Part shown: one piece after another, positions 18,103-42,122 of the stretch | How positions within the stretch are numbered: the stretch's first letter is position 1 | How the letters are laid out: every line of letters starts with the position of its first letter | Translations under genes and position numbers: made by a program | Assembly: GCA_963763745.1 (NCBI GenBank) | Contig: CAVXQJ010000001.1 | Location: 66,431 to 130,430 of the forward strand | Direction: 5' to 3' | DNA from: an uncultured delta proteobacterium | GTDB lineage: Bacteria > Myxococcota_A > Polyangia > Polyangiales > Polyangiaceae | Length of the DNA stretch: 64,000 nucleotides | The notes under the pieces: generated by a model | The model's input: the letters and a program-made list of their open reading frames with translations, nothing else | Told to the model about the DNA's origin: nothing | The model's database searches: none

Positions 18103-18510
18103 TGTGCACCCTCTCTCTGATCACCTCGCAATTGCACGGGGTATGCCGTGTCGAGATTCGCGTCGTTCGCTCAGAGCGATGCGCCGGCACGTGAATCGCG
18201 TTGCACGCGTGTGTTTCGACGTGCTCATCGCGAACCTGCCGCAAGCGGTGGCGCTGAAACGGTCAGGGGCACACTTGGCAGGCCACGTGTCCAGATGCGA
18301 TCAACACACAGCTTGCGTCGCGACCACAAAGCGCGCGACACGTTTCGGGCAGTCCCGACATGCCGCTCGCGTACGGCGGACCGCCCTCGAATCGGCAGCC
18401 CGGATTGTCCTGCATGTCGAAGAGGGCGCCGTAGGAGGTGCATGCGGTGCCAGCGTCCTCGATCACCGCAGCAGTGCACGCGTCGTTACAGCCGAGGAGC
18501 GCGGCGAGAC

Positions 18511-18626
18511 CCGTACCACGGCGATTCCGAAATGGGCTATCGCGTGAACCTCGGCTGCGTCATCGGACTCGACGTGCTCGCGCTCGAGATTGGAGTCATC
18601 GACGGACGCTCGATGCCAGTCGCCGA
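18511..18626 (+). repeat. 116-nt direct repeat, copy 1 (115/116 identical to 41292..41407); overlaps the 3' end of Kelch paralog 1
   Basis: cgtaccacggcgattccgaaatgggctatcgcgtgaacctcggctgcgtcatcggactcgacgtgctcgcgctcgagattggagtcatcgacggacgctcgatgccagtc[g/a]ccgac occurs twice in the same orientation. Contains internal inverted repeats (CATCGAcggacgcTCGATG; CTCGAcgtgctcgcgcTCGAG). Confidence 0.85.
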
Positions 18627-21013
18627 CGGCACGGACGTCTTCTAGCGCCGAGCAACATCAAGGTCACCAAGGTCCATGCGCCACCATCGGAACGACTGCC
18701 CGTAGCCATCGAGCACCCCGAGCTGTTGTTCGCCAGCGTGCGACAGATGCCAGTCGAGTCGCATACCGCCGGCGAAACACAATCACTCACGGAAGCGCAT
18801 TTGTCTTTGCAAGCTCCGTTCGTGTCGCATTTGAACGGCGTGCAATCTTGTGAAGCGCCTGCATCGTTCGACGCCGTGTACTCATTGATGCACCCGCCGC
18901 CAACGACACACGCGCCGTTTTCACACACGTATCCAGAGGCACAGTCGACGTTCAACGTGCATGTGGTCTTGCACGCTGTCGGCCCAGCACACGCAAAGTG
19001 ATTTGGACATCCCGTCGCGACTCCGGTCGCGCAGTGGCCCTGTCCGTCGCAGGTATTGCTGCTCTCGGTTGCGTTCGAGCACGAGCTTCCACATGGCGTG
19101 CCGGATGTCGTGTATGTGCATTGCAATGGATCATTTTGCGCGCACGACCCGCCGCACGTCGTTCCGCTACCTGCGCAGGGAGCGCGCACTCCATGAGGCA
19201 CGCCCGTGATCGGCGTGCACGTACCCATCGATGTGGTTACGTCACACGCCTCGCATTGCCCGGTGCATTGGGTGTTGCAGCACACGCCATCGACGCAAAA
19301 CGAGCCGTTGGTGCACTCCGCATCGCTGCCACACTGACCGCCTTGAGTCTGGTCACTGAAGATCAGCGCGGTCGTCAATGACTGATAGATGTATTGTGAG
19401 AGTTGCGTCGAGCCACCCGCGACGAGGACATTGCCCGTTGCAAGCGATGTCGCGGTTTGCTGGCTCGCATTGGCCGGAAGTGGCGACATCGTGCTGAACG
19501 TTCCAGCAGCCGGGTCGTACAACTCGGTCGTGATGAGATAGCCGTTCGCGATCGTGTAGCCGCCGCTGACGATCACTTTCCCGGACGAAAGCAATCCCGC
19601 GACCGCCTGGGAACGCGCGCTCGTCATCGAGCCGGTTGGCGCAAACGTACCCAAGCTTGGGTCGTAAAGCTCGGCGGTCGTGTCCGACGTGCCACCGGCG
19701 ATAAGCACTTTACCCGATTGGAGCCGTGTTGCGGTGTGCATCGAGCGGCCCTCTGACATCGCACCGCTCGTTGCGAACGTACCGAGTGATGGGTCGTAGA
19801 CCTCGCTCACCGCAGAAGAAGAACCACCCGCGACCAGCACCTTGCCGTTTGCGAGAAGCGTTGCAGTTTGACCCAAGCGAGCAACGTTGGCCGACCCGGT
19901 CGCTGCGAACGTGCCTTGATTGGGATCGTAGAGCTCCGCCGTCGTGCTGTTGTTCGTTCCCCCAACGATGAGGACCTTGCCGGTGCTGAGCGTCATCGCA
20001 CTCGGTTGATAACGTCCTACGACAAGGTCTCCCGTTGATGTAAACGTGCCGGCGACGGGATCAAAAAGGAGAGCGGTCGTCACTCCACCGACGACAAGCA
20101 CTTTGCCCGAGGGAAGGAGTGCGGCCGCAACTGCTGTACGATTGTCGGGCATCGAACCCGTCGTGGCGAAGGTTCCGCTCACGGGATCGTAAATTTCAGC
20201 GGTGGCATTTCCGCCGGAAACGACGACGACGCGACCGTTTTGAAGAAGAGCAGCGGCATGTCCGTAACGCGCAAACGTCATTCCACCGGTAGCGCTCCAC
20301 AGAGGGTCGAGCACTGCTGGATAGCGGACCGAGCTCCACGTGAGATGAAGTTGACACGTTGACGACGCCGGTGGCGTTGGAGCGCGATCCCACGGCGGCG
20401 TCGCTGACTCGTCGAAGGCACAACCCGTCAAAGACGCTCGCGCAGTCGTCTTCGCGCCATCAGCACTCAGCACGAAAGGGGCCGCAACGCGGAGTCGCGG
20501 CGCTCCGTGCGCATCCAAAAGCTCGAGCGTGTTCGAAACGAGCCGGAGCCCGGAGACCCGCGAGACGTCGATGTCATAGACGACCTCCTCGCGCTCTGGC
20601 TTGGACTCGAACAACACATCGTCCTCGGTGCCGTCTGGCCGAGCGTGGTGAACCACGTCAGCACCGTGCAGTGCTCGGCGATAGATCACGACGTCATGGA
20701 AAACCTGCGCAGTGGAATCGGACGCGTCGTGCAGCGCAAATTCGATTGCGACGTTCGATGTCGCGTCCTCGACCAGCGCGTTCGAGCGCGCGTCGTGTGG
20801 CAGTGCGACGATTGTTTGGGGGACGCCGCGCGATTCGTCCGCGGTAATCCGCAAGCGCTCTCCATCATCGACGAAGCCCAACGACGATGTCGCGCTCCAA
20901 CCCAACCTCGCGCGAAGAGCGGAGACATTCGTGACGCCGCCGTCGACGTCAATCGATGCGTCATGACCGCATGCGAAGAGCGCGACGACGACAAGAACGG
21001 CGTTACGCGACAT
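18596..21013 (-). CDS. Secreted Kelch-repeat beta-propeller protein with C-terminal Cys-rich module and MYXO-CTERM sorting tag (paralog 1 of 7)
   Basis: - Start MSRNAVLVVVALFACG (signal).
- Conserved N-domain (GTEDDVLF...PRLRVAAPFV...YPAVLDPLWS).
- ~8 repeats of GKVLVxGG...AELYDPxxGTFxxTGSM (Kelch-like).
- Cys-rich block CVDGVCCNTQCTGQCEACDV...DCTPFKCD.
- C-terminal GCSMATGSRSDGGAWTLVTLMLLGARRR (Gly-Cys, TM, Arg tail). Confidence 0.75.
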   Translation of the reverse strand: MSRNAVLVVVALFACGHDASIDVDGGVTNVSALRARLGWSATSSLGFVDDGERLRITADESRGVPQTIVALPHDARSNALVEDATSNVAIEFALHDASDSTAQVFHDVVIYRRALHGADVVHHARPDGTEDDVLFESKPEREEVVYDIDVSRVSGLRLVSNTLELLDAHGAPRLRVAAPFVLSADGAKTTARASLTGCAFDESATPPWDRAPTPPASSTCQLHLTWSSVRYPAVLDPLWSATGGMTFARYGHAAALLQNGRVVVVSGGNATAEIYDPVSGTFATTGSMPDNRTAVAAALLPSGKVLVVGGVTTALLFDPVAGTFTSTGDLVVGRYQPSAMTLSTGKVLIVGGTNNSTTAELYDPNQGTFAATGSANVARLGQTATLLANGKVLVAGGSSSAVSEVYDPSLGTFATSGAMSEGRSMHTATRLQSGKVLIAGGTSDTTAELYDPSLGTFAPTGSMTSARSQAVAGLLSSGKVIVSGGYTIANGYLITTELYDPAAGTFSTMSPLPANASQQTATSLATGNVLVAGGSTQLSQYIYQSLTTALIFSDQTQGGQCGSDAECTNGSFCVDGVCCNTQCTGQCEACDVTTSMGTCTPITGVPHGVRAPCAGSGTTCGGSCAQNDPLQCTYTTSGTPCGSSCSNATESSNTCDGQGHCATGVATGCPNHFACAGPTACKTTCTLNVDCASGYVCENGACVVGGGCINEYTASNDAGASQDCTPFKCDTNGACKDKCASVSDCVSPAVCDSTGICRTLANNSSGCSMATGSRSDGGAWTLVTLMLLGARRRPCRRRLASSVRR

Positions 21014-23549
21014 CGGCACGCACTCGTTTCCTGCGGAGACCGATGACGAGGCCGAGAACAGCGAGACCGATCGCGGCGTCCGGCGGACCGTCGGATGCTG
21101 CACACCCACCGCCGTCTCCATTCGTGGGCGGCACGCAATTCCCTGCGGTGTTGCAGATGTTCGGCGAGACGCAATCGTTAACCGACTGACACGTTGTCTT
21201 GCAAGCGCCCGAACCTTGGTCGCACTCGTAGGGCGTACAATCTTGTGCGGGCCCGGTCGGACCCTGCGAGGTGTGATCGCCCGAGCAAACTGCGCTCGTG
21301 CTTGGTGTGCAAGCGCCACCCGAGCAGGTGAAGCCTACAACGCAGTCGGTCTTTGCGACGCAAGTCGTCTTGCACGTGTTTGCGTCTGCGCACGTCAAGC
21401 TGCCAGTGCATTGATGCGGCGGAGCGACGATACAAGCCCCTTGCCCGTCGCACAGGCTATCCGTTTCGGTGGCGTTGGCGCACGTGCTTCCGCAAAGCGT
21501 CGTCGCGGGTGGATAGGTGCAGGCCGTCATGCTCAGCGTCGTGCATGAAAGGCCACAAACACCGCCAGCGTCCGCGCCGCAGCTCGGACGCGTGCCATGT
21601 GGCGCTCCTTGAACTTGGGTGCAGGTACCAAGTGATCCTTGCACGTCGCACGCTTCACATTGTCCCGTGCAGGTCGATTTGCAACATACGCCATCCACGC
21701 ACGCGAGCCCCGTGGCGCAATCGTTCGTTACATTACATACGTCGCCGGCACCGGATATCGCGAGGATCTCCGCGGCAGCATAGCCGCCCGAAAACTGATA
21801 CGTGTACGATGCGCCTCCCGTGACGAGTATTCTTCCAGGCGCAAATAGCGTTGCGGTGTGCCCACCGCGACCGAGGTTCATGGACACCGTTGCGCCGAAG
21901 GTGTTGTTCGACGCGTTGTAGATCTCCGCGCTTGCGACCGAGTTGGCGTCGACCGCGGCGACTCCACCCGTCACGACGACGTCTCCCGAGGCCAGCAGCG
22001 TGGCCCCTGCAAATCCGCGAGCAAGCGCCATGGGGTTCGTTGCGGAGAACGTGGCGTTCACGGGATCGTAGAGCTCCGCGCTCGTGAGGTCGGCACCGAC
22101 GGTCTGCGTCGATCCGCCGGCGACGAGTACCTTGCCGTTCGACAGCACGACACCGATGTGATCGCCCCGGGCGGTCGCGAGCGATCCCGTTGGTGCGAAG
22201 CTCGTCGTGTAGAGCTCCGCGCTCGTGAGCGCGCTGCCTCCGGAGAATCCACCGGCGATCAGCAAACCCGTAGTGACGATTGATGCCGTGTGATCGGAGC
22301 GCGCGGTTCCGAGCGAGCCTGCGTTCGAGAACGTCCCGGCCGTTGGATCGTAGAGCTCGCAACTGGTGAGTTGCCCGCCGCCATTTTTGGCTCCGCCGAC
22401 GACGAGCACTTTGTTGGACGCGAGCATCGTCGCGGTATGTCGTGAGCGCGCCGTTGCTAACGAGCCAGTCGATGAAAATGTGCCGCTGTTGGGATCGTAC
22501 GTGTCCGCGCTTGCGCTCAGGGTTCCACCGCCGTTGTCACCACCCACGACGAGCACTTTCCCCGTCGCAAGAAGCGTCGCTGTATGGGCTATACGCGGTG
22601 TCGTCATCGATCCCGTTGCTGCAAACGTTGTCGTCTGCGGATCAAAGAGCTCCGCATTCGCGAGCCCATCACCTCCCGCGATGAGCACCTTTCCGGACGC
22701 GAGCAATGTCGCCGTGTGCAACATGCGCGGAGTCGTCAATGAATTCGTCGTGGTCCACTGTGGGTCGAGCAACGCCGGATATTGCACGTCGTGCCACGTC
22801 ACGTGAATTTCGCAGACGCCCGCTCCAGGCTCGGTGACCGGGCGGCCCCATGGAGGCAGCGGATTGTCGTCGTATGCGCATCCAGCAACGTGCGTCGAGG
22901 CCGACGTCACGACACCATGCTCGTCTACGAGTCTTGGTGGCGACATCCGCAAACGCGGTGTGCCGCTCGCATCGACGAGCTCGAGGACGTTACCGACGAG
23001 CCTCACTCCGCGAACGTGTGAAACGTCTAGGTGATAGACGACCTCTTCGCGCTCGGGCGCAAAGTCGAAAGCGATGAAGTCTTCGACGCCCTCAGCGTGC
23101 ACGCGTTCGACGAGATCAAAACCCGCAAACGCGGAAGGGTAGATCGCAATCCCGCCCGCAACTGCGATTGGCGTCGGCGCGGTGTGGTCGAGCGTGAGCT
23201 CGACTTGGATCTTCGACAGTGGGTCTTGTAAGCGCACGGCGCCATTCGCCCGGAGCGGCAGCTGCACTGCGCCTGCGTGCGGCGAGCTTCGTTCAGCGGG
23301 AATGATCGGGATCGCCGTCGAACCGAGCTCGAAGCGCGTCGCGACGCTTTGGCCGAGAATCGGAGTGCGCTCGAAGTTTGCACCGTGAGTTGCGTATGCG
23401 AAGCGCTGGCGGATCTCGCCGATTCGCACGGCCGCTTCCGCGGGCTTCGCAGGGGTATTCGAAACACCAGACGAGACCTCGCTGCAACCCCAAGGCCCCG
23501 CGATGAATGCGGCGGCGATCGCGTAACAAGCACACCGAACTACGTTCAC
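21003..23549 (-). CDS. Secreted Kelch-repeat / Cys-rich / MYXO-CTERM protein (paralog 2)
   Basis: Probable GTG start (VNVVRCACYAIAAAFIAGPWGCS signal). Same N-domain (GVEDFIAFDFAPEREEVVYHLDVSHVRGVRLVGNVLELVDASGTPRLRMSPPRLVD). Kelch-like repeats (GKVLVVGG...ELYDPxxGTF). Cys-rich block CVDGVCCKSTCTGQCEACDV. C-terminal GGCAASDGPPDAAIGLAVLGLVIGLRRKR. Confidence 0.75.
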   Translation of the reverse strand: MNVVRCACYAIAAAFIAGPWGCSEVSSGVSNTPAKPAEAAVRIGEIRQRFAYATHGANFERTPILGQSVATRFELGSTAIPIIPAERSSPHAGAVQLPLRANGAVRLQDPLSKIQVELTLDHTAPTPIAVAGGIAIYPSAFAGFDLVERVHAEGVEDFIAFDFAPEREEVVYHLDVSHVRGVRLVGNVLELVDASGTPRLRMSPPRLVDEHGVVTSASTHVAGCAYDDNPLPPWGRPVTEPGAGVCEIHVTWHDVQYPALLDPQWTTTNSLTTPRMLHTATLLASGKVLIAGGDGLANAELFDPQTTTFAATGSMTTPRIAHTATLLATGKVLVVGGDNGGGTLSASADTYDPNSGTFSSTGSLATARSRHTATMLASNKVLVVGGAKNGGGQLTSCELYDPTAGTFSNAGSLGTARSDHTASIVTTGLLIAGGFSGGSALTSAELYTTSFAPTGSLATARGDHIGVVLSNGKVLVAGGSTQTVGADLTSAELYDPVNATFSATNPMALARGFAGATLLASGDVVVTGGVAAVDANSVASAEIYNASNNTFGATVSMNLGRGGHTATLFAPGRILVTGGASYTYQFSGGYAAAEILAISGAGDVCNVTNDCATGLACVDGVCCKSTCTGQCEACDVQGSLGTCTQVQGAPHGTRPSCGADAGGVCGLSCTTLSMTACTYPPATTLCGSTCANATETDSLCDGQGACIVAPPHQCTGSLTCADANTCKTTCVAKTDCVVGFTCSGGACTPSTSAVCSGDHTSQGPTGPAQDCTPYECDQGSGACKTTCQSVNDCVSPNICNTAGNCVPPTNGDGGGCAASDGPPDAAIGLAVLGLVIGLRRKRVRADVA

Positions 23550-23661
23550 CAACCCCTCCGTTTCCGTTCGATTCCATCTTGGGAGGTCGATCGACGCAAG
23601 GAAAAAGGTGCCTCGTCCGCCGCCTATTGCCGCCGCCAAGCACCGCTGGCAGAGTAGCGTG

Positions 23662-24705
23662 ATGGATCGCGATCTCGAACGCGCGCAGTTGCGAGTCGGC
23701 GCATCCTTGCGCGGAAAATACCTACTCCAACGTGTGCTGGGCGTGGGTGCGATGGCAGCGGTCTACGAGGCGACGCACCGAAACGGAACGCGCGTCGCGG
23801 TCAAAGTGCTTCACACCGAGGTCGCTGCGATCCCCGACATCAAGAAGCGTTTCCAGCGCGAGGGGTACATCGCGAATCGCATCGAGCATCCGAGCGTCGT
23901 CCGCATCACCGACGACGACGAGGATGTCGACGGAACGGTCTTCGTCGTGATGGAGCTTCTGCAAGGCCACACGCTCGAGACCGAGCTGAAAACGTGTGGC
24001 GGTCGGCTTCCTCCGTCGCGGGTCATCGCGATGGGTGATGCCGTGCTCGACGCGCTCGAAGTGGCTCACGCAGCAGGCGTCATTCATCGCGACATCAAAC
24101 CCGACAACGTGTTTCTCACGCTCGGTGGAATCAAGATCCTCGATTTCGGAATCGCGCGCTTGATGGACATCTCCAGCGTCACGAAGAGCGGGCAGATGAT
24201 GGGCACTCCGGAGTTCGTTGCGCCGGAGCAAGCGGGTGGACGCATTCACGAAATCGACGGCCGCACCGATCTCTTCTCCGTCGGTGCGATGATGTTCACG
24301 ATGCTGACGGGAGACTTCGTGCAGCACGCGCGCACGCCAATCGAATACATGGTCTTCGCCGCGACGAAACCCGCACCGCCCATTCGCTCCGTCATGCCCG
24401 AGCTCGACCGCAGCTTGGCCGAGGTCATCGACGTTGCACTGGCGTTCGAAAAAGAAAAACGCTGGGCTTCCGCACGTCAAATGCAAGCAGCGTTGCGAGG
24501 CGCATCCTTTGGGTTGGAGGAGACCGTGGCAACGACGGGAGCCTACGAGCGATTGCAAGCGATGCGCGCTGGGCGGGAGAGGCGAACCACCGACCCGATG
24601 CCGCCACGAGCGAATCAGCAGAGACTGCCTGAGGTGTCGAGCACGCGCACTGTTCCGATGATGAGTCCTGCGTCTGAGCAGCCTATTCCGTTGAAGCGGA
24701 AATAG
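23662..24705 (+). CDS. Ser/Thr protein kinase (Hanks-type), divergent from paralog 2 and upstream of paralog 3
   Basis: Glycine loop GVGAMAAVYEA, VAVK, HRDIKPDN catalytic loop, DFG, GTPEFVAPE activation segment. ~348 aa, no TM. Confidence 0.85.
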   Translation: MDRDLERAQLRVGASLRGKYLLQRVLGVGAMAAVYEATHRNGTRVAVKVLHTEVAAIPDIKKRFQREGYIANRIEHPSVVRITDDDEDVDGTVFVVMELLQGHTLETELKTCGGRLPPSRVIAMGDAVLDALEVAHAAGVIHRDIKPDNVFLTLGGIKILDFGIARLMDISSVTKSGQMMGTPEFVAPEQAGGRIHEIDGRTDLFSVGAMMFTMLTGDFVQHARTPIEYMVFAATKPAPPIRSVMPELDRSLAEVIDVALAFEKEKRWASARQMQAALRGASFGLEETVATTGAYERLQAMRAGRERRTTDPMPPRANQQRLPEVSSTRTVPMMSPASEQPIPLKRK

Positions 24706-24773
24706 ACGAAACAATAACAACTAACTCCGCTCGTCGCGTTCTCGAGTCGCGCGCGGACAACAGAAGGGGGTGC

Positions 24774-27590: not shown

Positions 27591-27726
27591 CGTCCCGCGA
27601 CTTTCTCATCGCCGCGGGCGGAACCCTCGCGCTCTTGTGGTGATCCCGCCTCCACAAAACCGAGAGCCCCAACACACCATCACAGCGGTGGCAAGTGGTA
27701 TCAGCCGAACATTTGGTCGCAAGTGG

Positions 27727-32555: not shown

Positions 32556-32567
32556 TTTCCCCCCAAA

Positions 32568-34265
32568 CTAAAATTCGTACTTGAACCCAAGACTCGGAAC
32601 GAGCGCGATCACCACGGTGCTCGTGAGCCGGTCGTTTGCAAACGATCCCGCGCCGTCAGTCCCCGTGAGCACCTGCGTTGTTTGATTCCACCGCGGCGGG
32701 CTGAGCGCGGGCATCACGAGGAGCTCGGCGCCCAAGCTCACCTCGACGTGATCGCCAAACTTGCGACCGAGTCTCACTTCGGGCGCCACGAACAAATAGA
32801 TGGCACTTGGCGCTTGCGTGGTGTCGACCGAGTACGTCCCACCCTTCGCCGCGGTGAAGGAACCGGTTCGATGATCTCGTGTCGAACCGAAAAACACACC
32901 GACCCCGAGGCGCACCGTGAACGGCCAGTCGCCGCGCGTGCGATATTGCCCGTCGATGCCGGCAATCACACCGCCGAATAGCAAGCTATCGTTCGCCGTG
33001 CCTTGGCTAACCAGCGCTCCGGGCGATGTTATCGTCGTAGCTCGATTGGAGATGGTATTCGTCAATAGTACGTAGCCGGCGCGCAAACCGACGCCGATAC
33101 CCGATCCGAATATGTACGTACCGTGGAGCACGCCCTCGAATCCAATCGGAAGGCCAGCGCTGCATCCAGCGGTGCATTCCGAGCTGCTCTGCATGTCGCT
33201 CGCCGCGAGAAGACCGAGCGGCGCGCCGAGATCGACCTCGAGCGCGATTCCGCTGTGGCCCGCAGGCGGCGCGATGACGTCGAGTTTTGCGTCGACGATC
33301 GCGTGATCGCCGGAGTCGAGCTTGATGTCGCGCGTGAACGCTCCATAACCTTCGAGCGTCGCCGCGATCTTGTGGGTGCCCACTGTGAGGCGACCGTCCC
33401 AGACACCGCGGCCAACAGGCACTTCATCGATCGTCACCGCAGCAGACGCAGGATTCGGCGTGACGCGCAACGTGGCGGCGAGCTCTTGCATCGTGAGATC
33501 GAGCGACGCAACGTCATTGAGCTTGATGTTGACCAATGAAGGCGGTGTCCCGTCGGTTCCCTCGCCACGGAGAAATACCGTGTGGGCTCCCGGAGCGAGC
33601 GCGCCTTCCCACGGAACGTGCCCAACGACTGCGCCATCGACGACGAGCTCCGCTGTTTTTCCCTGGTGCTCGACTACACGCAAACGCCCGGCTTGCGTGA
33701 GCGCGGCGAGTTGCGCGTGAACGACTGCGGCTTGTCTGCCTGCGAGATCGATGCGCGTCTCGAAGGGTAAGGCGCCGTCTTTGGTGACGCGTACGAAGTG
33801 ACTGCCCGCCGAAAGACGAATCGGCCCTTTGAGTGGCGTCTTGCCGCGTTCGACGGAATCGATCGTGACGGTCGCGCCATCCGACGCGCCTTGAATGTCG
33901 ATGGTGCCGACGGACGCTTGCAGCTCCGTGATCTCGCGTTGTGCGAGCGCCCGATCCGCTGGAGACAAATCCTGAAACTCGTGGACGAGCTTTTCGAACA
34001 TGTCGAGCGCTTCGTCGAAGCGACCGACTTTGCGCAAACAGATCGCCGCGTTCTTCGTGTTGCCGCGCGATGGAAAGAGCTCACGCGACTTCAAGAACTC
34101 GACGAGCGCCGCCTGCCATTCTTCGCGGTCGAAATGGGATAGGCCGAGATCGAAGTGGCTGCGCGCCTCTTCCTTCTGCTGGTCGCTCACCTGTCCCCAC
34201 GCATTGATCGACAGGAGTATGGATATGACTATTACTGCAAGAGTAACTGGTCGTCGGATCATCAC
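32568..34265 (-). CDS. Outer-membrane protein: signal peptide, TPR-like N-terminus, PEGA-type Ig-like domains and C-terminal beta-barrel
   Basis: MMIRRPVTLAVIVISILLSINAWGQ signal. TPR-like helical segment (EARSHFDLGLSHFDREEWQAALVEFLKSRELFP...). Repeated PEGA-like beta segments (ATVTIDSVERGKTP; AELVVDGAVVGHVP; AAVTIDEVPVGRG). C-terminal alternating-hydrophobic strands ending ...LGFKYEF (terminal Phe, classic OMP barrel signature). ATGA overlap with the upstream kinase. Confidence 0.6.
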   Translation of the reverse strand: MMIRRPVTLAVIVISILLSINAWGQVSDQQKEEARSHFDLGLSHFDREEWQAALVEFLKSRELFPSRGNTKNAAICLRKVGRFDEALDMFEKLVHEFQDLSPADRALAQREITELQASVGTIDIQGASDGATVTIDSVERGKTPLKGPIRLSAGSHFVRVTKDGALPFETRIDLAGRQAAVVHAQLAALTQAGRLRVVEHQGKTAELVVDGAVVGHVPWEGALAPGAHTVFLRGEGTDGTPPSLVNIKLNDVASLDLTMQELAATLRVTPNPASAAVTIDEVPVGRGVWDGRLTVGTHKIAATLEGYGAFTRDIKLDSGDHAIVDAKLDVIAPPAGHSGIALEVDLGAPLGLLAASDMQSSSECTAGCSAGLPIGFEGVLHGTYIFGSGIGVGLRAGYVLLTNTISNRATTITSPGALVSQGTANDSLLFGGVIAGIDGQYRTRGDWPFTVRLGVGVFFGSTRDHRTGSFTAAKGGTYSVDTTQAPSAIYLFVAPEVRLGRKFGDHVEVSLGAELLVMPALSPPRWNQTTQVLTGTDGAGSFANDRLTSTVVIALVPSLGFKYEF

Positions 34266-35920
34266 ATGCTTCGATCAATGGCCGGTGTAGTGGAGGGCTT
34301 TGTGGTTTTGGTCGTCTGCGGTGCGGCGGTGACCGTCGGCGCAGTGACCGGGGCGCTCGATGCTGCAGCAGTCGGCGTGACGACGGTCACGCCGCCGTGC
34401 TGAGTTTGACGTGTGGGAGTGGGCGTGACCGCGACGGTATCTTTCAGCGCGCTGACCAAGTTTGGACGCGCGCCAGTCTCCGCGATGACGACGTCATCCC
34501 ACTTCTCGTTGCCGTTCTGCACCACATGGACGCGGTGCACGCTTCCGATGTCGCCCGTGACGTCGATCTTTCCGTCGTGCACGACCGCCACCACACCATC
34601 GACGTCGACGCGTGCGTCGCTGGGCGTGATCGTCACTTGGACCGTCCGGCGCGAGCTCGGTAGCGCTTGTTGCGAGGATGACGGCAACGCCGCTGTCGAC
34701 TCCGAGGCGACGGGCGTGATCGCTGCCGCCTTTTGTCTGGATAACGCGGCATACGTTCCAAGCGTACCCAGAACCGCGACACCGCCGACGAGCGGCAACG
34801 CCCACCGTAGCGCCGACTTGCGCGGAACCCCGGCAGGCGCCTGACTCGCGCCGAAACCACCGGTCGTAGACTGCACATTAGCGGATGCGATGTTTGGCGA
34901 CGATGTACCGGGAGATGATATCGCGATGGATGCAGCGAGAGGAGACTGCGGCCCGCTGCGATCCGCGCCGGACACCGTCGGCGTGATTCGCGGCGCGACC
35001 GTCGCGCGCATCGCATCCGGCATCGGAGCGAGCGACGCCTGCGAGATCACTGCGCCATTCGGCAAGAGCGCGAAGATCGCAGCGTGCATTTCGGCAGCTG
35101 TCTGGAATCGATCGCCCGGCTCGTGCGACATCGCCTTGTGGACGATGCTCGCAACCTCGGCGGGGACCCACGGCGCGAGATCTTGCACGGGCTTGAACTT
35201 GCCCGAGTTGATCGCAATGAGCAGCTGGCCGATCGTCTCGCACTCGGCGTGCGGCGTCCGACCGCACAACGTCTCATAAAGGACGACGCCGAGAGACCAG
35301 ATGTCGCCGCGACCGTCCAGCGTCTTGAGACCCAAAGCTTGCTCAGGCGACATGTAAAGCGGTGAACCGATCATCGAGCCCGTGCGCGTGAGCCCGTGAT
35401 CGCCCGCTTGCGCGAGTTGATCCGCCCGCACCTTCGCGATTCCGAAATCGAGAATCTTCACGATGGCGTCGCCCGAGTCGCGCTTGGAGATGAACAGGTT
35501 CGCCGACTTGATGTCGCGGTGAATGATCCCCGCGTCATGTGCGCGCTTCAAACCGAGACACGCGTGAGACAAGAGACGCAATGCGAGATCGGGAGCAATT
35601 GGACCGACGCGGCGAATGAGCTGCTGGATGTCTTCTCCGGAGAGAAGCTCCATCACCATGTACGGATTGCCCGTCGACCCATCGACGCCCGTGTCGAGCA
35701 CTTGAACGACGTGTTCTGACTCGATGGCACCGCTCGCGCGCGCCTCGCGCTGAAAGCGCGTGATGATGTCCGCGCCTTGCGCGAGCGCCTGCGCGACGAT
35801 CACCTTGAGCGCGACGCGCCGTCCCGTGCCCGTGTGGCGTGCTTCATAGACCGCACCCATCCCGCCTTCGCCGAGTTGGCGAATGACTTGGTATTTGTTG
35901 TCGATGATTTGGCCTTGCAT
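34262..35920 (-). CDS. Ser/Thr protein kinase with C-terminal Pro/Ala-rich linker, TM segment and periplasmic/extracellular domain
   Basis: GEGGMGAVYEA, VALK, HRDIKSAN, DFG, SPLYMSPEQ, then SRKSALRWALPLVGGVAVLGTLGTYAAL TM and a ~170-aa C-terminal domain. First gene of a minus-strand four-gene run (kinase-OMP-paralog5-paralog4). Confidence 0.85.
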   Translation of the reverse strand: MQGQIIDNKYQVIRQLGEGGMGAVYEARHTGTGRRVALKVIVAQALAQGADIITRFQREARASGAIESEHVVQVLDTGVDGSTGNPYMVMELLSGEDIQQLIRRVGPIAPDLALRLLSHACLGLKRAHDAGIIHRDIKSANLFISKRDSGDAIVKILDFGIAKVRADQLAQAGDHGLTRTGSMIGSPLYMSPEQALGLKTLDGRGDIWSLGVVLYETLCGRTPHAECETIGQLLIAINSGKFKPVQDLAPWVPAEVASIVHKAMSHEPGDRFQTAAEMHAAIFALLPNGAVISQASLAPMPDAMRATVAPRITPTVSGADRSGPQSPLAASIAISSPGTSSPNIASANVQSTTGGFGASQAPAGVPRKSALRWALPLVGGVAVLGTLGTYAALSRQKAAAITPVASESTAALPSSSQQALPSSRRTVQVTITPSDARVDVDGVVAVVHDGKIDVTGDIGSVHRVHVVQNGNEKWDDVVIAETGARPNLVSALKDTVAVTPTPTRQTQHGGVTVVTPTAAASSAPVTAPTVTAAPQTTKTTKPSTTPAIDRSM

Positions 35921-36030
35921 GTGGGGTTAGCCATTCGAGCATACACGCTTGCCGCGTCGAAGGAATGGCCGACCGTTGACACCGTGTGCGTTGACCTGAG
36001 AAGCTGCGATTCGAAGAGGGAGGCGGGGAG

Positions 36031-36444
36031 ATGCTCGCGAGGTGTCTGGTCATTCTTTCGTTCGGAGTCTGCGGGTGTGGCTCCATGGTCTACACGAACG
36101 TCTTCATTCCAACGCCGGTCATGCTCGGGCCGATCGATCGAATCGGCGGCAAACCGACGCAATCCTCCGGACCCACCACCATCGACGCCGTGATGTACAC
36201 CGACCGTGGGTGGAGCACGGGCGCAGACACTTTGGCGTTGAGTAACGCCGTGCGAGCGAGCCTGCTTGCAGAAGGGATTGGTCCGAAGCAAGTAGGTGAC
36301 GCAACGGTGCGCATCGATGAAATCGCCGCAGGTGAGTACCTGATGTGGACGATTCCTTACCTCACGCCAATCGTCTTAATCCGACATTCGCGCGTCAATC
36401 CACATGGACGCCTGCAGCGCGAAACAGCGCAGGTGTCGCAATGA
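36031..36444 (+). CDS. Small lipoprotein (137 aa), hypothetical
   Basis: MLARCLVILSFGVCGCGS lipoprotein-type signal. Stop overlaps the next start (ATGA). Confidence 0.45.
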   Translation: MLARCLVILSFGVCGCGSMVYTNVFIPTPVMLGPIDRIGGKPTQSSGPTTIDAVMYTDRGWSTGADTLALSNAVRASLLAEGIGPKQVGDATVRIDEIAAGEYLMWTIPYLTPIVLIRHSRVNPHGRLQRETAQVSQ

Positions 36445-36860
36445 AGCGCTTGTTGGCCATGCTCTTGGTGATCTGTTGCGCAGGGTGCGCGGGCGGTCGT
36501 GGTTGGATCAGCGCTCCGACTGCGCAATATCCAGTTTCGCTTTCACATGGCATTCGCGCCGCTGACGGGCATCTGCTCGGTCCGAAAGAAAGAAAAAGAG
36601 TTGGTGGCTTTGACACGTCGAAGACGTTCGTCGCGTTATTCTACGATGCGATCCCGCTGAATGGTTCGTTCGACCTTTCCGATGATATCAATCAGCAGGT
36701 GAAAGCGGTTGGCGGGGAAGCCATCACCGATCTGACCTTCCAAACGAGCCTGTGTGCGCTCGACGCCATACCGGTTCTTCACATCCTCCCGTTCTGGCCC
36801 GGTTGTGCCACGGTTCGTGTCACGGGAAACATCATTCAGTCCCAGCCACCAGCGCAATAA
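36441..36860 (+). CDS. Small lipoprotein (139 aa), possible paralog of the preceding one
   Basis: MKRLLAMLLVICCAGCAGG signal/lipobox. Similar size and weak similarity to 36031..36444. Directly precedes paralog 6 (2-nt gap). Confidence 0.45.
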   Translation: MKRLLAMLLVICCAGCAGGRGWISAPTAQYPVSLSHGIRAADGHLLGPKERKRVGGFDTSKTFVALFYDAIPLNGSFDLSDDINQQVKAVGGEAITDLTFQTSLCALDAIPVLHILPFWPGCATVRVTGNIIQSQPPAQ

Positions 36861-36861
36861 A

Positions 36862-38958
36862 ATGAAACGCAGTATCGTAGTTGGTTTTGTAGTCATCGGA
36901 ATTGCGTGCAACACGAGCCAGAACGAAGCTCGTGGAGTTCCCGCGACCGGAGCGGCGGCGATGGGGACATCTGCGCGCGTGAGCTTGCCGGCTTACGCGA
37001 GCGATGCCGTGACGGTCGAAGATCTCCCGACCCACACCCTGGTGCGTTTTGCGCTGCGTGGTGCGGATCGGGTGCCGTCGACGCTGGCGGGCAAGTCCAT
37101 CGCGTATCGAGGGGCCGTGAGCGGTGCGGATGTCATTCATCGTGTGAGCGAAAACGGAACCGAAGACTCCGTCGTGTTCGCTTCGCGGCCGAACGCTGAG
37201 GAGATTGTTTACGACCTCGACGTTTCGACCATCGCTGGCTTGCGGCTCGTCAGCAACACACTCGAGTTTCTCGACGCGAGCGGCACACCCCGTTTGCGTG
37301 TGGCCCCACCGTTCGTGATCGACCACGATGGCGCGCGCCACGATGCGGCCATGCGTGTCGAAGGATGTGCATATGACGACAACCCCGCGGCGCCTTGGGG
37401 TCGAAGCGTCACGCCACACGCGCAGACTTGCGCGCTACACGTCTCCTGGACTTCACCGTCCTATCCGGCCACGCTCGACCCACAGTGGACCACGACGGGC
37501 GCGATGGCGACGGCGCGCGCGTACCACACGGCAACTCTCCTCTCGACGGGCAAAGTTCTCGTCGCGGGAGGGAACAACGGTTCTGTGCTCTCGAGCGCAG
37601 AGCTCTACGATCTCGGCACGCACACGTTCGCGGCGACGGGTGCACTCGGAACGGCGCGGTGGGAGCACGCCGCCGCAGCATTGACGACAGGAAAAGTGCT
37701 CGTCGCCGGCGGCACTGGTTCGGCCGCTCTCGCCAGCGCGGAGCTCTACGATCCATCCGCTGGGAAATTCTCGGCGACGGGTTCGCTCGTGTCCGCGCGC
37801 TCAGGTCACACGGCAACGGTCCTCTCGTCCGGCAAAGTGCTCATCGTCGGAGGCACGCCATCGACGGCGGAGATCTACAACAACGGCACGTTCACGACGA
37901 CGGGTACGCCAGCAGCGAGCCCAATTGCCGGGCACTCGGCAACGTTGCTTCAATCGGGCGACGTGCTCGTCGCCGGCGGTTACAATCCAAGTGCATTCCC
38001 GGGGTACGCAACTACCATAAGCCAGGTCTATAGCGTAGCGAGTGGCACCTTCTCGAAATCGGGATCGATGACCAACGGGCGTCATGGTCACGCAGCAGCT
38101 CTGCTTCCGTCGGGGAAAGTGCTCGTCGTTGGTGGCTCGAACGTTACTGGCGACACATCGAACCTTGTGTACTTCGATGTTGCCCCTGCCGAGCTGTGGA
38201 GCGCTGGCTCGTTCACAACAACGGCGTCGCTTGCAACCGGACGCGACGCGCCAACAGCCGCGCTCCTCCCGTCGAATCAAGTCCTCGTGGTGGGTGGAGC
38301 GACCAGCACATCGACGGAGCTATACGACCTTGCGGCCGGCACGTTTGGCTCGGGTGGATCGTTGAACGTCGCACGTGATCACAATGCGGCAACGCTCTTC
38401 GCGACCGGAGAAGTGCTAGTGACGGGCGGCAAGAACGCATCGAACGGCTACGAGGCGAGCGCAGAGGTTTATGGGCTCCCCAACGCTTCGACGTGCACGA
38501 ACGACCAAGACTGTGCGTCGGGATTCTGCACGGATGGTTATTGCTGTACGACGGCGTGTACCGCGCAGTGTGAAGCGTGCGACATCGCGGGCTCGCTTGG
38601 CACGTGTTCGCCGGTGATGTCTGGACCCTCACATGGCACTCGCCAAGCATGTACGTGCAATGGTGGTGAATGCGCATCCGGTGCGACGTGCGTGGATGAG
38701 CACACGTCGAATGGTGTTGGCGGCCAGCACGATTGCGCGCCCTACGTCTGCGACGTCAGCGGATCTGGTGCGTGCAAGACGACGTGCGCATCCGTCAGCG
38801 ATTGCTATGCGCCCAACGTGTGCGACTCGACGGGTGCTTGTGTACCACCACAGCAAAGCAATTCCGGTGGGTGCGCCATGGGCGGCTCCGACGGGCGCGA
38901 CGGATCTGTGGTCGCGCTCATCCTCGCGGCGTTGTGCGTGCGCCGGAGACGTCGATGA
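36862..38958 (+). CDS. Secreted Kelch-repeat / Cys-rich / MYXO-CTERM protein (paralog 6)
   Basis: Start MKRSIVVGFVVIGIACN. N-domain (GTEDSVVFASRPNAEEIVYDLDVSTIAGLRLVSNTLEFLDASGTPRLRVAPPFVID), Kelch-like repeats (GKVLVAGG...AELYDLGTHTF), shorter Cys-rich block CTDGYCCTTACTAQCEACDI...DCAPYVCD, C-terminal GGCAMGGSDGRDGSVVALILAALCVRRRRR. Confidence 0.75.
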   Translation: MKRSIVVGFVVIGIACNTSQNEARGVPATGAAAMGTSARVSLPAYASDAVTVEDLPTHTLVRFALRGADRVPSTLAGKSIAYRGAVSGADVIHRVSENGTEDSVVFASRPNAEEIVYDLDVSTIAGLRLVSNTLEFLDASGTPRLRVAPPFVIDHDGARHDAAMRVEGCAYDDNPAAPWGRSVTPHAQTCALHVSWTSPSYPATLDPQWTTTGAMATARAYHTATLLSTGKVLVAGGNNGSVLSSAELYDLGTHTFAATGALGTARWEHAAAALTTGKVLVAGGTGSAALASAELYDPSAGKFSATGSLVSARSGHTATVLSSGKVLIVGGTPSTAEIYNNGTFTTTGTPAASPIAGHSATLLQSGDVLVAGGYNPSAFPGYATTISQVYSVASGTFSKSGSMTNGRHGHAAALLPSGKVLVVGGSNVTGDTSNLVYFDVAPAELWSAGSFTTTASLATGRDAPTAALLPSNQVLVVGGATSTSTELYDLAAGTFGSGGSLNVARDHNAATLFATGEVLVTGGKNASNGYEASAEVYGLPNASTCTNDQDCASGFCTDGYCCTTACTAQCEACDIAGSLGTCSPVMSGPSHGTRQACTCNGGECASGATCVDEHTSNGVGGQHDCAPYVCDVSGSGACKTTCASVSDCYAPNVCDSTGACVPPQQSNSGGCAMGGSDGRDGSVVALILAALCVRRRRR

Positions 38959-41150
38959 ACCTTTGGCGTGCGCTCATCGGCTCGGCGTGTGTCGTCGTCG
39001 TTGTGAAATGCAACGTTGAACCAGACCACGCTCGCACGTCGGCATCGCTACTGGCGGACGTGAATGCACGCGCGTCCGATCTGTACACACGCTACCCGAT
39101 CCTCAACACACGAGAGCCGCACGCCGTATCCGGCAAAGCAGCAACTGACCTACCCAATGTTGCAAGCGGGACCGTGACGGTAGCAGACGTTGCCTCCGAC
39201 GTAGTGATCGCGTTTTCGCTTTGCGGAACCAACGACGCGAACCGCGTCGACATCAACGGCATGTCGATCTATCCCGCCGCACTGAGCGGTGCGGATCGCC
39301 TTCAGCGCGTTGGCGAAAACGGGACGGAAGACTTCGTTGCCTTCGAATCTCGTCCGACGACCGAGGAGCTCCGTTACGACGTGGACGTCTCACGAGTTGC
39401 GGGAGTACGCAGCATATCGAACGTGGTCGAATTTCTCGACGCCTCCGGCACGCCGCGATTGCGCGTAGCGCCCCCATTCGTCATCCAAGCAAACGGTTCG
39501 CGCACGTCCGCGACGCTCGCGCTCGAAGGGTGTGCATTCGACACGGGCCCAGCCCCGTCATGGGGAAGGCCGGTAACGAAACCGGGAACGACGTGCGTCA
39601 TGCGTGTGACGTGGCGTGACGTTGTTTATCCGGCGCTCGTCGATCCACATTGGCAGACGACCGGCAACCTCATTGGAACCAAGACCGGTGGTGCGACGCT
39701 GTTGCAAGACGGACGCGTTCTCATCACGGGCGGTACATCACAGATCTACGATCCAACGACGGCAACGTTTGGTGCCACGGGTGCGATGGGCACAGCGCGC
39801 ACCGATGCAACGGCAACGCTGCTTCCGACGAACCGAGTCCTCGTTGCTGGTGGGGATGGCTCGACGACCGCGCTCGCGAGCGCGGAACTCTTCGATCCGA
39901 CCGCCGGAACGTTCTCTGCCACCGGCGCCATGACGTCACCGCGCGCGCTTCACACCGCAACGCTGCTCAACACGGGAAAGGTTCTCGTTGTGGGAGGGAT
40001 GACGACCGACGCGTACGCCATGCCCGCGCTCACGAACGCGACGGAGCTCGCGACCGCCGAGCTATACGATCCATCGACGGGCAAGTTCACCACGACAGGC
40101 TCGATGAAGGCGGCGCGCGCCTGGCACACGGCGACCCTTCTACCCGACAATACTGTCCTCATCGCTGGTGGATTTTATGAGACGTCGGGCGGCTCTCCGA
40201 ATTTTCCGCAGACTGCAGAGCTCTATGGCAATGGAACGTTCACATCCACGGGCACGATGGCGGCCGCACACGTTCACCACATTGCGATTGCGCTTTCGCC
40301 AGGCGTGCTCATCGCCGGCGGTGGCTACGTATATGAAGGACAGGAAGGAACATCCTACAACTATATCAACGCTGCTGAGATGTACGTTGGTGGCTCCTTC
40401 GTCACGGTTGGCAACATGCTTGCCCAACGCGGCTCTGCAGCCGCGGCGACGCTCCCGTCCGGCGATGCAATCATCATCGGTGGAGGCGCTGGCAACAGCA
40501 CCGAAGTACAATATTCGACGACGGAGATCTTCGACCAGAACAAGAAGACATTTTCGCAAGGCGAGTCGCTGGCGACTCCCTGCGGCGACCCTTTCACCGC
40601 GGCTGTCACGGCGACTGTGCTCCAATCGCACATCGTACTAACCACGTGTGAGGGCGGCGCTGCTTTCCTCTACACGCTCGACAATGGACAGCCTTGCACG
40701 AAGACGTCCGCGTGTGCGTCCGGTTTTTGTGTGGATGGGGTGTGTTGCGACACGGCATGCACTGGTCAGTGTCAAGCGTGTGATGTCGCTGGCGATGTTG
40801 GCACTTGTAGCGCAGTGAATAGCGGCCCTTCTCACGGAGCGCGCCCGTCGTGCACGTGTGACAACGGGCAGTGTTCCAATCACCAATGCTCCGACCCACA
40901 CACGTCGCAATCCACCGATGGTGGCACCGAAGATTGCACTCCATACGTTTGCGCGACGACCGGCTTCTGCTCCACCTCGTGCGCCTCGGTCACCGATTGC
41001 GTCTCGCCGAATGTTTGTGATTCCACTGGGCGCTGCGTGGCACCCCCGAGCGGGTCGGGTGGATGCAACACGTCGAATGGGGCGACAGACGCGTGGTGGT
41101 TGATCGCGCTCGTCGTCGCTTCGCGGCGGCTGAAGCGACGCTTGGATTGA
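38955..41150 (+). CDS. Secreted Kelch-repeat / Cys-rich / MYXO-CTERM protein (paralog 7)
   Basis: ATG overlaps paralog 6 stop (ATGA). Signal MNLWRALIGSACVVVVVKC. N-domain (GTEDFVAFESRPTTEELRYDVDVSRVAGVRSISNVVEFLDASGTPRLRVAPPFVIQ), Kelch-like repeats, Cys-rich CVDGVCCDTACTGQCQACDV...DCTPYVCA, C-terminal GGCNTSNGATDAWWLIALVVASRRLKRR. Confidence 0.75.
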   Translation: MNLWRALIGSACVVVVVKCNVEPDHARTSASLLADVNARASDLYTRYPILNTREPHAVSGKAATDLPNVASGTVTVADVASDVVIAFSLCGTNDANRVDINGMSIYPAALSGADRLQRVGENGTEDFVAFESRPTTEELRYDVDVSRVAGVRSISNVVEFLDASGTPRLRVAPPFVIQANGSRTSATLALEGCAFDTGPAPSWGRPVTKPGTTCVMRVTWRDVVYPALVDPHWQTTGNLIGTKTGGATLLQDGRVLITGGTSQIYDPTTATFGATGAMGTARTDATATLLPTNRVLVAGGDGSTTALASAELFDPTAGTFSATGAMTSPRALHTATLLNTGKVLVVGGMTTDAYAMPALTNATELATAELYDPSTGKFTTTGSMKAARAWHTATLLPDNTVLIAGGFYETSGGSPNFPQTAELYGNGTFTSTGTMAAAHVHHIAIALSPGVLIAGGGYVYEGQEGTSYNYINAAEMYVGGSFVTVGNMLAQRGSAAAATLPSGDAIIIGGGAGNSTEVQYSTTEIFDQNKKTFSQGESLATPCGDPFTAAVTATVLQSHIVLTTCEGGAAFLYTLDNGQPCTKTSACASGFCVDGVCCDTACTGQCQACDVAGDVGTCSAVNSGPSHGARPSCTCDNGQCSNHQCSDPHTSQSTDGGTEDCTPYVCATTGFCSTSCASVTDCVSPNVCDSTGRCVAPPSGSGGCNTSNGATDAWWLIALVVASRRLKRRLD

Positions 41151-41291
41151 TCATCATCGCAACTGATCGCCTCTCATGCGCGTTTGCGTCGGTTGCGGGC
41201 GAAGAGAGCGGCGATCGTGTGCAGTCTTGGGAGGGTTCCGTCTGCACCCTTCGAGGTGTGATCGTCGGTGCAAGTCACATCTTCTGCAGGA

Positions 41292-41407
41292 CGTACCACG
41301 GCGATTCCGAAATGGGCTATCGCGTGAACCTCGGCTGCGTCATCGGACTCGACGTGCTCGCGCTCGAGATTGGAGTCATCGACGGACGCTCGATGCCAGT
41401 CACCGAC
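41292..41407 (+). repeat. 116-nt direct repeat, copy 2 (115/116 identical to 18511..18626); intergenic, immediately upstream of the DUF998-like membrane protein gene
   Basis: Same sequence as copy 1 in the same orientation. Lies 140 nt after the paralog 7 stop and ends 3 nt before a GTG start at 41410. Both long ORFs that include it read identically (…VPRRFRNGLSREPRLRHRTRRARARDWSHRRTLDAS…), so the repeat is longer than any selective coding explanation would require. Confidence 0.85.
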
Positions 41408-41409
41408 CA

Positions 41410-42027: not shown

Positions 42028-42122
42028 GCGCGCGGTTTGCGGTCATGTGCGTCGATTGCGCCGCCGGGCTCTGTTTCGCTCGCAAAATGCGCAGGTGCGC
42101 GCCTTGCAACATTTGACGACCG

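Follow-up and report, generated by a model that had tools for sequence, protein, structure and literature searches.

Two near-identical copies of a 116-nt sequence bracket an array of seven paralogous genes in this genome, which raises the question of what the repeat is and how it came to lie at both borders of the array. The window is the whole 64,000-nt stretch of DNA that was analyzed, and all positions count from its first letter. The repeat pair and the block between its copies are as follows.

18512..18627, + strand: repeat copy A, 116 nt, identical to copy B at 115 of 116 positions
41292..41407, + strand: repeat copy B, 116 nt, identical to copy A at 115 of 116 positions
18628..41291, no strand: bracketed 22.7-kb block, holding the seven paralogs, two Ser/Thr kinase genes, a PEGA/TPR gene, and a putative remnant of an eighth paralog

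The copies lie in the same orientation with a spacing of 22,780 nt and match each other in blastn at an E value of 3e-55. Their sole mismatch is at repeat position 111 (G18622 in copy A, A41402 in copy B), and the longest perfect block between them is 110 nt. The chance expectation of such a pair is 0, as no match with three or fewer mismatches appeared in any of 100 dinucleotide-preserving shuffles of the window. There are two copies in the 64 kb, and no similarity between them extends past either repeat end. Thus, the earlier note was right to describe a 116-nt direct repeat with one mismatch and correctly gave the 22.8-kb spacing and the position of copy B (41292-41407); the position it gave for copy A (18511-18626) is one base off. 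Its statement that the repeats delimit the array also holds, in that all seven paralogs are located between the copies.

The base composition of the repeat points to a protein-coding origin. A three-base periodicity in GC content (0.73/0.40/0.83) is confined to the repeat interior, and the codon-usage log-odds of the plus-strand frame, in the frame of copy B, is +20.7 within the repeat (for comparison, true gene windows score 8.3 ± 11.9 and wrong frames −5 to −18). In this frame the peptide reads YHGDSEMGYRVNLGCVIGLDVLALEIGVIDGRSMPV[A/T]D, which matches the C-terminal end, the final ∼40 residues, of GFA-family proteins (PF04828). GFA denotes the glutathione-dependent formaldehyde-activating enzyme fold. 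The two remnant frames are as follows.

18514..18645, + strand: GFA remnant frame of copy A (…GRSMPVADGTDVF*), with a tail that diverges past the repeat end
41294..41413, + strand: GFA C-terminal remnant frame of copy B (YHGDSEMGYRVNLGCVIGLDVLALEIGVIDGRSMPVTDQ*), identified from codon log-odds, homologues, and alignments

A phmmer search of 1.84 billion representatives with the repeat peptide returned 44 homologues at an E value of ≤1e-3, the best non-self matches having E values of 1.4e-8 and 2.5e-8. Among the matches are full-length proteins of ∼100 to 130 amino acids with CxCG…CxCSxC…FCKxCG motifs and the C terminus GYRVNLGCVEGLDPLALEIxIIDGKSxP. For one homologue of full length, P0058, Pfam assigns membership in the GFA family (E = 8.6e-11; 42.4 bits against a gathering score of 24.3). 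In the reverse direction, five GFA homologues compared with the window by tblastn matched only the two repeat copies, with E values from 1e-10 to 6e-16. The source genome's own ORF call P0024 (64 amino acids) spans the remnant of copy B, and P0025 (67 amino acids, 97% identity) spans that of copy A; neither matched a Pfam family at an E value of ≤0.1, even below the gathering score. These two calls, both from this contig, were the only ones to match the repeat peptide in a word-indexed search of 5.8 billion proteins.

Relative to bacterial members of the GFA/CENP-V family (PF04828), the plus-strand frame of the repeat is 57 to 79% identical to the C-terminal ∼34 to 40 residues. Members of this family also have a Cys-rich, zinc-binding N-terminal region of ∼85 residues, whereas the repeat retains only the last ∼38 codons. 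That N-terminal region, with its zinc-binding cysteines, is absent from the whole window in all frames, and none of the motifs CxCG, CxCSxC, and FCxxCG occurs upstream of either copy in any frame. A doubtful "FCRT" does precede copy B, and within the stretch SHIFCRT seven residues are possibly GFA-like (null P of about 0.02). Judged by codon usage and homology, then, the 116-nt repeat is the last ∼38 codons of a degraded GFA-family gene, present twice; on the same evidence it is a gene fragment and not a functional GFA member, and both copies appear to be dead-gene remnants because the N-terminal ∼85 residues are missing from the window.

The features that adjoin the two copies are as follows.

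18263..18511, − strand: small Cys-rich ORF, possibly a 5′-truncated gene, whose extent ends precisely where copy A begins
18596..21013, − strand: paralog 1, a Kelch-repeat, Cys-rich, Arg-tailed surface-protein-like gene
41174..41291, − strand: putative decayed C-terminal fragment of an eighth paralog (…PAEDVTCTDDHTSKGADGT…IAALFARNRRKRA*), stopping at the left edge of copy B
41410..42027, + strand: DUF998-family membrane-protein gene, directly downstream of copy B, with coding-score support

The immediate flanks are GAGACC|…|GGCACG for copy A and GCAGGA|…|CAGTGA for copy B, and each copy has a junction at its left end. To the left of copy A, the frame of the small Cys-rich ORF has a positive coding score from 18274 to 18490 and begins with a lipobox-like sequence (…GLAALLGC), with no start codon upstream. 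These features hint at a 5′-truncated gene, but it is uncertain whether the ORF is a gene at all because no homologues were found among 5.8 billion proteins. On the other side, copy A overlaps the 3′ end of paralog 1, as the earlier note had recognized, and it covers the last 32 nt of that gene. The minus-strand stop codon of paralog 1 (18596-18598) lies inside copy A, and the antisense strand of the repeat supplies the last 10 codons of the gene (RRRLASSVRR) together with this stop.

Copy B was described as lying just past paralog 7 and abutting a membrane-protein gene. The second part is accurate, as its right end is 2 nt before the GTG start (41410) of the DUF998 gene; the first is not, since the repeat begins 141 nt beyond paralog 7. 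This 141-nt gap probably holds a decayed eighth paralog, a proposal drawn mainly from one 55-nt DNA match (41219-41273 against 21235-21288 in paralog 2; blastn, 76% over 55 nt, E = 9e-5), the match at the protein level alone being weak (E = 1.6). The product of the DUF998 gene is represented by P0001, which is 100% identical at 205 amino acids, and its homologues carry PF06197. The TGA stop of the remnant frame in copy B (41411-41413) overlaps the GTG start of this gene (41410-41412).

An independent Logan contig (k = 31, run ERR11594405) begins at window position 41372, that is, at 41402 − 30. This is the first 31-mer containing the base specific to copy B, the point at which 31-mers stop being unique to that copy. 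In Logan assemblies, built with a k of 31, every 31-mer is by construction unique (PMC12424806). The repeat is thus real in the reads, the break being as expected for a second context with G at the mismatch site. That one copy is an assembly artefact absent from the organism therefore deserves scant credence: frameshifts seem to affect two genes of the window and may stem from errors of assembly, but the contig break falls where two contexts predict it, and both copies have distinct flanks on each side.

Several known kinds of element could place a short repeat at both ends of an array, and the sequence fits none of them well. The earlier note had suggested a MITE-like element. A MITE, or another short repeat of mobile or generic type, landing at both array ends would agree with the discrete unit, its sharp ends, and the junctions at both left ends. 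However, no inverted repeats involve the termini, neither copy has a target-site duplication, and the 64 kb hold only the two copies. Searches of genome, metagenome, viral, and plasmid collections yielded no true match; a codon-degenerate 29-nt pattern gave one chance match, in a Clostridia MAG, and 0 in the metagenome and viral collections, and blastn and tblastn against plasmids gave 0 matches. Together with the two self ORF calls as the only hits among 5.8 billion proteins and the clear protein-coding ancestry of the sequence, this makes a mobile or generic repeat highly improbable. The other suggestion, a structured RNA, terminator, or 5′ leader with a regulatory role common to the flanking genes, could draw on the placement of copy B directly upstream of the DUF998 gene and of copy A at the 3′ end of paralog 1, but the copies face their neighboring genes differently. 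Of the two hairpin-capable palindromes proposed within the repeat, short internal stems are indeed present, but an RNA-structure check found folds slightly less stable than those of shuffled sequences on both strands (z = +1.1 and +0.8), which is the chance level. No T-run terminator or sigma-70-like site was found inside the repeat, and Rfam gave no match at the gathering score or at an E value of ≤1. We consider a regulatory RNA scarcely credible.

An attachment-site origin, in which a circular element carrying the array integrated site-specifically into the 3′ end of a GFA gene and so duplicated a 116-nt attachment region as attL and attR of a genomic island, is a further candidate. The 3′ end of a protein-coding gene, which the repeat represents, is a classic type of target, and direct repeats of it bracket a 22.7-kb block, just as duplicated target-gene 3′ ends flank multigene blocks at the borders of integrative islands. 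Unlike such borders, the present locus lacks both an integrase and, upstream of the left copy, an intact target gene. The model needs an intact GFA 5′ part upstream of copy A, and none exists in any frame; indeed, neither copy is continuous with one. No integrase or excisionase was found in the block, beside it, or elsewhere in the window, nor were mobile-element genes found inside the block, and no integrase, transposase, or reverse transcriptase was among the ORFs scanned by Pfam across the window. The block has the same GC content as its immediate flanks (60 to 63% over the whole 12.8- to 44-kb stretch), without a GC step or codon discontinuity at the repeat boundaries, and both block ends cut through paralog genes. 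We therefore give an att origin very little weight. Integration at a tRNA was also rejected: the only tRNA (Arg-CCG, 12749-12826) lies 5.7 kb from copy A, and no integrase was found. A diversity-generating retroelement (DGR) would have a nearby reverse transcriptase, many differences between its template (TR) and variable (VR) repeats confined to template adenines, and a VR that lies in frame at the target gene's 3′ end. Here, no reverse transcriptase is among the scanned ORFs, the copies show a single difference (A in copy B, G in copy A), and the repeat is antisense to paralog 1, so a TR/VR pair was discarded as well.

A different question is whether the repeats, whatever their origin, can recombine. 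Quoted minimal processing segments for homologous recombination are 23 to 27 and 44 to 90 bp (PMC12074656), and the 110 perfect nucleotides shared by the copies exceed this range of uninterrupted direct identity (∼25 to 90 bp), so en bloc deletion or duplication is physically plausible. Through RecA, the direct repeats could let the 22.7-kb array be lost or amplified in tandem, which would be a passive by-product of the repeats rather than evidence of purpose. A close parallel is in Salmonella Typhimurium DT8/DT30, where 113-bp repeats in direct orientation, attL-wzy and attR-wzy, flank the wzy locus, a 2.6-kb interval for which excision and re-insertion have been demonstrated experimentally (PMC12074656). 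As there, near-identical direct repeats of similar length, in both cases long enough for RecA-dependent recombination, bracket a surface-structure locus without a dedicated recombinase nearby. Unlike the wzy repeats, those described here span 22.7 kb, consist of a visible pseudogene fragment, and are known from sequence only.

This parallel raises the possibility that the repeats are maintained as functional sites for reversible excision, loss, or amplification of the array en bloc, a population-level on/off or copy-number switch like that of wzy. Their length (116 nt, 110 of them perfect) is above the minimal processing segment and nearly that of the wzy repeats, they bracket the array exactly, and the products of the array are putative envelope or surface proteins. 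(A MYXO-CTERM label for the paralog tails was dropped, as NCBIfam detects none and the resemblance is by eye only.) Nevertheless, a piece of some unrelated dead gene is more readily explained as an accident than as a dedicated site, and one of the copies spoils the 3′ end of paralog 1. No recombinase lies nearby, and the 22.7-kb spacing would lower the efficiency of recombination. We consider maintained recombination sites unlikely, and it is very unlikely that the repeats are exploited in the manner of wzy for reversible excision or amplification of the seven envelope beta-propeller proteins. If they were, the population would have a switchable surface repertoire without a dedicated recombinase.

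We instead favor, with a probability of roughly 0.65, a recent copy-paste of a GFA pseudogene fragment during illegitimate repair of a break, the fragment having no function of its own. One copy would have been made from the other very recently, because the two differ at one position in 116 whereas the array paralogs are only ∼70 to 75% alike. Unrelated sequence, gene stumps included, borders both copies. We infer that the copying was illegitimate and took place when a break in a repeatedly rearranged region was repaired by end-joining or template switching. Any such account has to deal with the left junction shared by the copies, which means that simple copy-paste models need a coincidence. 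Two alternative histories, a tandem duplication followed by deletion and a staggered break giving a long target-site duplication, were set aside because, in either one, a coincidence at the left boundary would go unexplained. In the sequence of events that we propose, a break would expose the left end of a GFA remnant. A second broken end would then prime on the exposed end, copy 116 nt, and be ligated elsewhere, and the exposed remnant end itself would be joined to a resected paralog. Priming by a broken end might, by this reasoning, account for the same starting base in both copies.

End-joining is plausible here because three modules of the nonhomologous end-joining (NHEJ) type are encoded in the window: an ATP-dependent ligase, a LigD Prim-Pol, and a PolX. 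A gene for Ku was not identified there. In Sinorhizobium meliloti, bacterial NHEJ has been shown to capture fragments of DNA at chromosomal breaks (PMC6379672). As at this locus, fragment capture or templated patch insertion of this kind leaves short DNA at a junction without homology or target duplication, with truncated neighbors. The S. meliloti case is an experimental capture of exogenous cassettes, whereas here the event is deduced solely from sequence, and what was inserted would be a duplicate of a chromosomal segment nearby.

The evidence on the direction of copying points both ways. For copy B as the native site, the stop codon of the remnant overlaps the DUF998 start and the possible SHIFCRT lies upstream. 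For copy A, a Pro codon precedes the repeat and "ADG" follows it, which resembles the closest homologues (PYHGD…, …ASDPG). No GFA gene occurs within 2.5 kb of DUF998 in 84 related loci, so neither position is marked as native by this adjacency. Homology of the repeat to the 3′ end of a gene that precedes a DUF998 homologue, suggested by a DNA match seen by eye, was rejected, as alignment against shuffles put the similarity at the level of chance (97 of 500 shuffles for DNA and 483 of 1,000 for protein). Possibly, a third copy is present elsewhere in the genome, perhaps as the intact parent GFA gene.

The locus is cautionary, in that repeats "exactly delimiting" a paralog array would be the stump of an unrelated dead gene, present twice. 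We suggest that the 116-nt repeat not be annotated as a mobile element, an att site, or an RNA motif. Rather, the copies would mark the borders of the array as recent rearrangement breakpoints, which also carry the putative decayed eighth paralog. At one of these borders a surface-protein gene, paralog 1, appears to have gained a new C-terminal tail from antisense junk. The repeats nonetheless offer a concrete substrate on which loss or amplification of the array could be tested, in a window that itself encodes NHEJ-type enzymes.

The earlier note had described a 116-nt sequence occurring twice in the same orientation with one mismatch, and this was confirmed. The two copies are identical at 115 of 116 positions, with a longest common perfect block of 110 nt and a sole difference at repeat position 111 (G18622 versus A41402), and when the window was shuffled 100 times with dinucleotides preserved, no repeat match with three or fewer mismatches arose. 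The coordinates reported for copy B (the right copy) were right, while those of copy A (the left copy) were off by one base. The copies lie 22,780 nt apart, start to start, and their likeness ends sharply on both sides. They do bracket the paralog array, as all seven large paralogs fall between them.

Repeat copies, paralogs, and paralog remnant (window coordinates, strand or orientation, feature)
18512-18627, direct orientation with copy B, repeat copy A
18596-21013, minus strand, paralog 1
21003-23639, minus strand, paralog 2
24774-27590, plus strand, paralog 3
27727-30228, minus strand, paralog 4
30087-32555, minus strand, paralog 5
36754-38958, plus strand, paralog 6
38955-41150, plus strand, paralog 7
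41174-41291, minus strand, decayed C-terminal-domain fragment of an eighth paralog (DNA match and alignment collinearity)
41292-41407, direct orientation with copy A, repeat copy B

Common to paralogs 1 to 7 are Kelch or beta-propeller repeats, a Cys-rich C-terminal domain, and a hydrophobic Arg-rich tail; sharing is mainly in the N-terminal and Cys-rich C-terminal parts. Paralog 3 matched an SBBP beta-propeller lipoprotein model, not Kelch, and holds four 192-nt tandem units (25658-26533). Paralog 1 starts within the 3' end of paralog 2 (stop/start overlap at 21003-21013), and paralog 7 within that of paralog 6 (38955-38958, ATGA), which suggests that these pairs are co-transcribed and translationally coupled.

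The repeat carries a strong three-periodic GC signal (0.73/0.40/0.83) confined to its interior. Coding potential was scored in all six frames, the codon table having been trained on the window's confident genes; a single plus-strand frame reached +20 log2 units, compared with 8.3 ± 11.9 for true-gene windows of the same length and −5 to −18 for wrong frames. This frame encodes YHGDSEMGYRVNLGCVIGLDVLALEIGVIDGRSMPV[A/T]D, the substitution at position 111 being non-synonymous (Ala/Thr). A phmmer search of the peptide against 1.84 billion representative proteins gave 44 matches at E ≤ 1e-3, two of which are ORFs called over the copies in the source genome itself (P0024, 64 aa, and P0025, 67 aa; both on the 276,592-nt NCBI/ENA source contig). 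The remainder are mostly small proteins with the ending …GYRVNLGCVEGLDPLALEIxIIDGKSxP…. Full-length homologues (about 100 to 130 aa) have CHCG…CxCSLC…FCKxCG motifs N-terminal to this ending, and one of them, P0058, passes the Pfam model PF04828 of the glutathione-dependent formaldehyde-activating (GFA) fold (42.4 bits; cut-off, 24.3). When five GFA homologues were searched against the window with tblastn, they matched both repeat copies (57 to 79% identity; E = 1e-10 to 6e-16) and no further GFA piece in any frame. The coding frame, the GFA C-terminal homology, and the lack of any other GFA piece in that search together indicate a gene stump that is present twice; judged by homology, the repeat is what remains of the 3' end of a GFA-family gene, its last ∼38 codons; the ∼85 codons ahead of them, with the zinc-binding cysteines, have been lost. 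Many of the matching database proteins (P0030 to P0065) are short, an unrelated N terminus being fused to the GFA C terminus. These are probably a clustering artefact, aberrant fragments having been placed in clusters of their own, but could instead reflect frequent truncation in this GFA subfamily.

A codon-degenerate 29-nt pattern of the repeat had one chance match in the GTDB-representative collection, from which the source genome is absent, and zero matches in the JGI metagenome and viral collections; nothing in the plasmid collection matched the repeat. A Logan contig of run ERR11594405, assembled independently at k=31, covers window positions 41372 to 44184 (contig base 1 falls at 41372, as judged from the downstream TLC transporter gene at contig positions 752-2080). 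This position equals 41402 − 30, the start of the first 31-mer holding the copy-B-specific base. The assembly graph thus branches in the repeat at the point expected if a second copy with G truly exists, which is a sign at the level of reads that the sample contains both variants.

All four junctions were examined. The right edge of copy A cuts the last codons of paralog 1, so that …LLGARRRPC is followed by RRRLASSVRR* from the repeat antisense; the fragment has given paralog 1 its last 10 codons and its stop. At the left edge of copy A, a minus-strand ORF that scores positively as coding and has a lipobox-like GLAALLGC extends up to the repeat and lacks a start codon; because no homologues were found, it may be no gene at all. 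Beyond the right edge of copy B (41407), the TGA of the remnant frame (41411-41413) overlaps the GTG (41410) of a membrane-protein gene, which is directly preceded by a 33-codon remnant ORF (ATG 41312). The membrane protein (205 aa) is identical to P0001, and its homologues carry PF06197/DUF998. The nearest of these are 62 to 68% identical and have different neighbour genes; a GFA gene lay within 2.5 kb at 0 of 84 DUF998 loci. The 141-nt gap between paralog 7 and copy B contains, on the minus strand, the paralog 8 fragment, …PAEDVTCTDDHTSKGADGT…IAALFARNRRKRA*, which matches paralog 2 DNA (76% over 55 nt; E = 9e-5) and is collinear in the multiple alignment, the match at the protein level alone being weak. 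The fragment joins a CTDDHTSKG… motif to the …IAALFARNRRKRA* tail and converges on paralog 7. Either the array was formerly larger or its border has eroded. On the plus strand, the bases left of copy B read SHIFCRT, close to the GFA 'NHLFCKT' on the assumption that five codons have been lost right at the edge of the repeat; this extension scores above 97.7% of null windows and is only suggestive of a further GFA piece.

Other readings of the repeat fared poorly. A structured or terminator RNA, one of the ideas in the earlier note, is contradicted by folds less stable than shuffles on both strands (z = +1.1 and +0.8), by the absence of terminator-like or sigma-70-like sites within the repeat, and by the lack of an Rfam match at the gathering score or at E ≤ 1. 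The proposed MITE-like element does not agree with a repeat that has no terminal inverted repeats or target-site duplication and that occurs just twice in the window. No integrase, transposase, or reverse transcriptase turned up when ORFs across the window were scanned with Pfam. Island att sites were rejected given the missing integrase, the absence of the GFA 5' part that the model needs joined to copy A, and a GC content that is uniform (60 to 63%) between 12.8 and 44 kb and does not shift at either repeat. We judge the repeat to be neither a mobile element nor an att site nor an RNA motif. The lower-GC block itself (∼12749 to 44000; 64 to 70% outside) may be an old genomic island. It starts at tRNA-Arg(CCG) (12749-12826), beside which no integrase was found, and holds a helicase gene, small Cys-rich ORFs, the array, and DUF998, TLC-transporter, and GH25 genes. 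Frameshifts seem to affect two genes: an HSP70 gene (6978-10045) is spread over three frames, and a defence-like HIT-PLD-ResIII-helicase-S24-DUF3427 gene (13556-17541) breaks near 15.8 kb. Each is either a pseudogene or the product of indel errors in the assembly.

The earlier note had also suggested a recombination substrate. The 110 perfect nucleotides exceed minimal efficient processing segments of 23 to 27 and 44 to 90 bp (PMC12074656), and the direct repeat of RecA size that brackets the array may act as such a substrate as a passive consequence. Excision at the Salmonella wzy locus is mediated by 113-bp identical direct repeats (PMC12074656), a very similar case. Reversible excision of this kind for the 22.7-kb surface-protein array seems very unlikely.

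With 1 difference in 116 nt, compared with identities of ∼70 to 75% among paralogs, the duplication is far more recent than the array and cannot date from its formation. In both copies, the left end of the repeat is a junction. A tandem duplication followed by deletion, a staggered break, and random patch copying would each need one base to be struck twice independently. A plausible scenario that would remove this coincidence is priming by a broken end. A double-strand break would expose the remnant's left end. Another break would supply a 3' end that primes there, copies 116 nt, and is then ligated to the end from which it was originally parted; the remnant end itself would be joined to a resected paralog 8. 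The same scheme would hold with the roles of the sites swapped. Bearing on the direction of copying are the overlapping stop/start and possible upstream FCRT at copy B, and, at copy A, a Pro codon leading into the repeat and an ADG trailing it, as in the closest homologues. Bacterial nonhomologous end joining (NHEJ) is able to insert DNA fragments at chromosomal breaks (PMC6379672), which, together with three enzymes encoded in the window, makes the scenario plausible.

End-joining toolkit components in the window (coordinates, feature)
53891-55627, PolX+PHP polymerase
59197-60243, ATP-dependent DNA ligase
61952-63286, LigD-type Prim-Pol

No Ku was recognised among neighbouring ORFs without Pfam hits. 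These end-joining-type genes share the window with the rearrangement scars.

The paralog 1 tail, the remnant ORF before DUF998, and the bracketing repeat are not evidence of selected function. The feature is a real but ordinary one, a recently duplicated GFA-family pseudogene fragment at rearrangement breakpoints.
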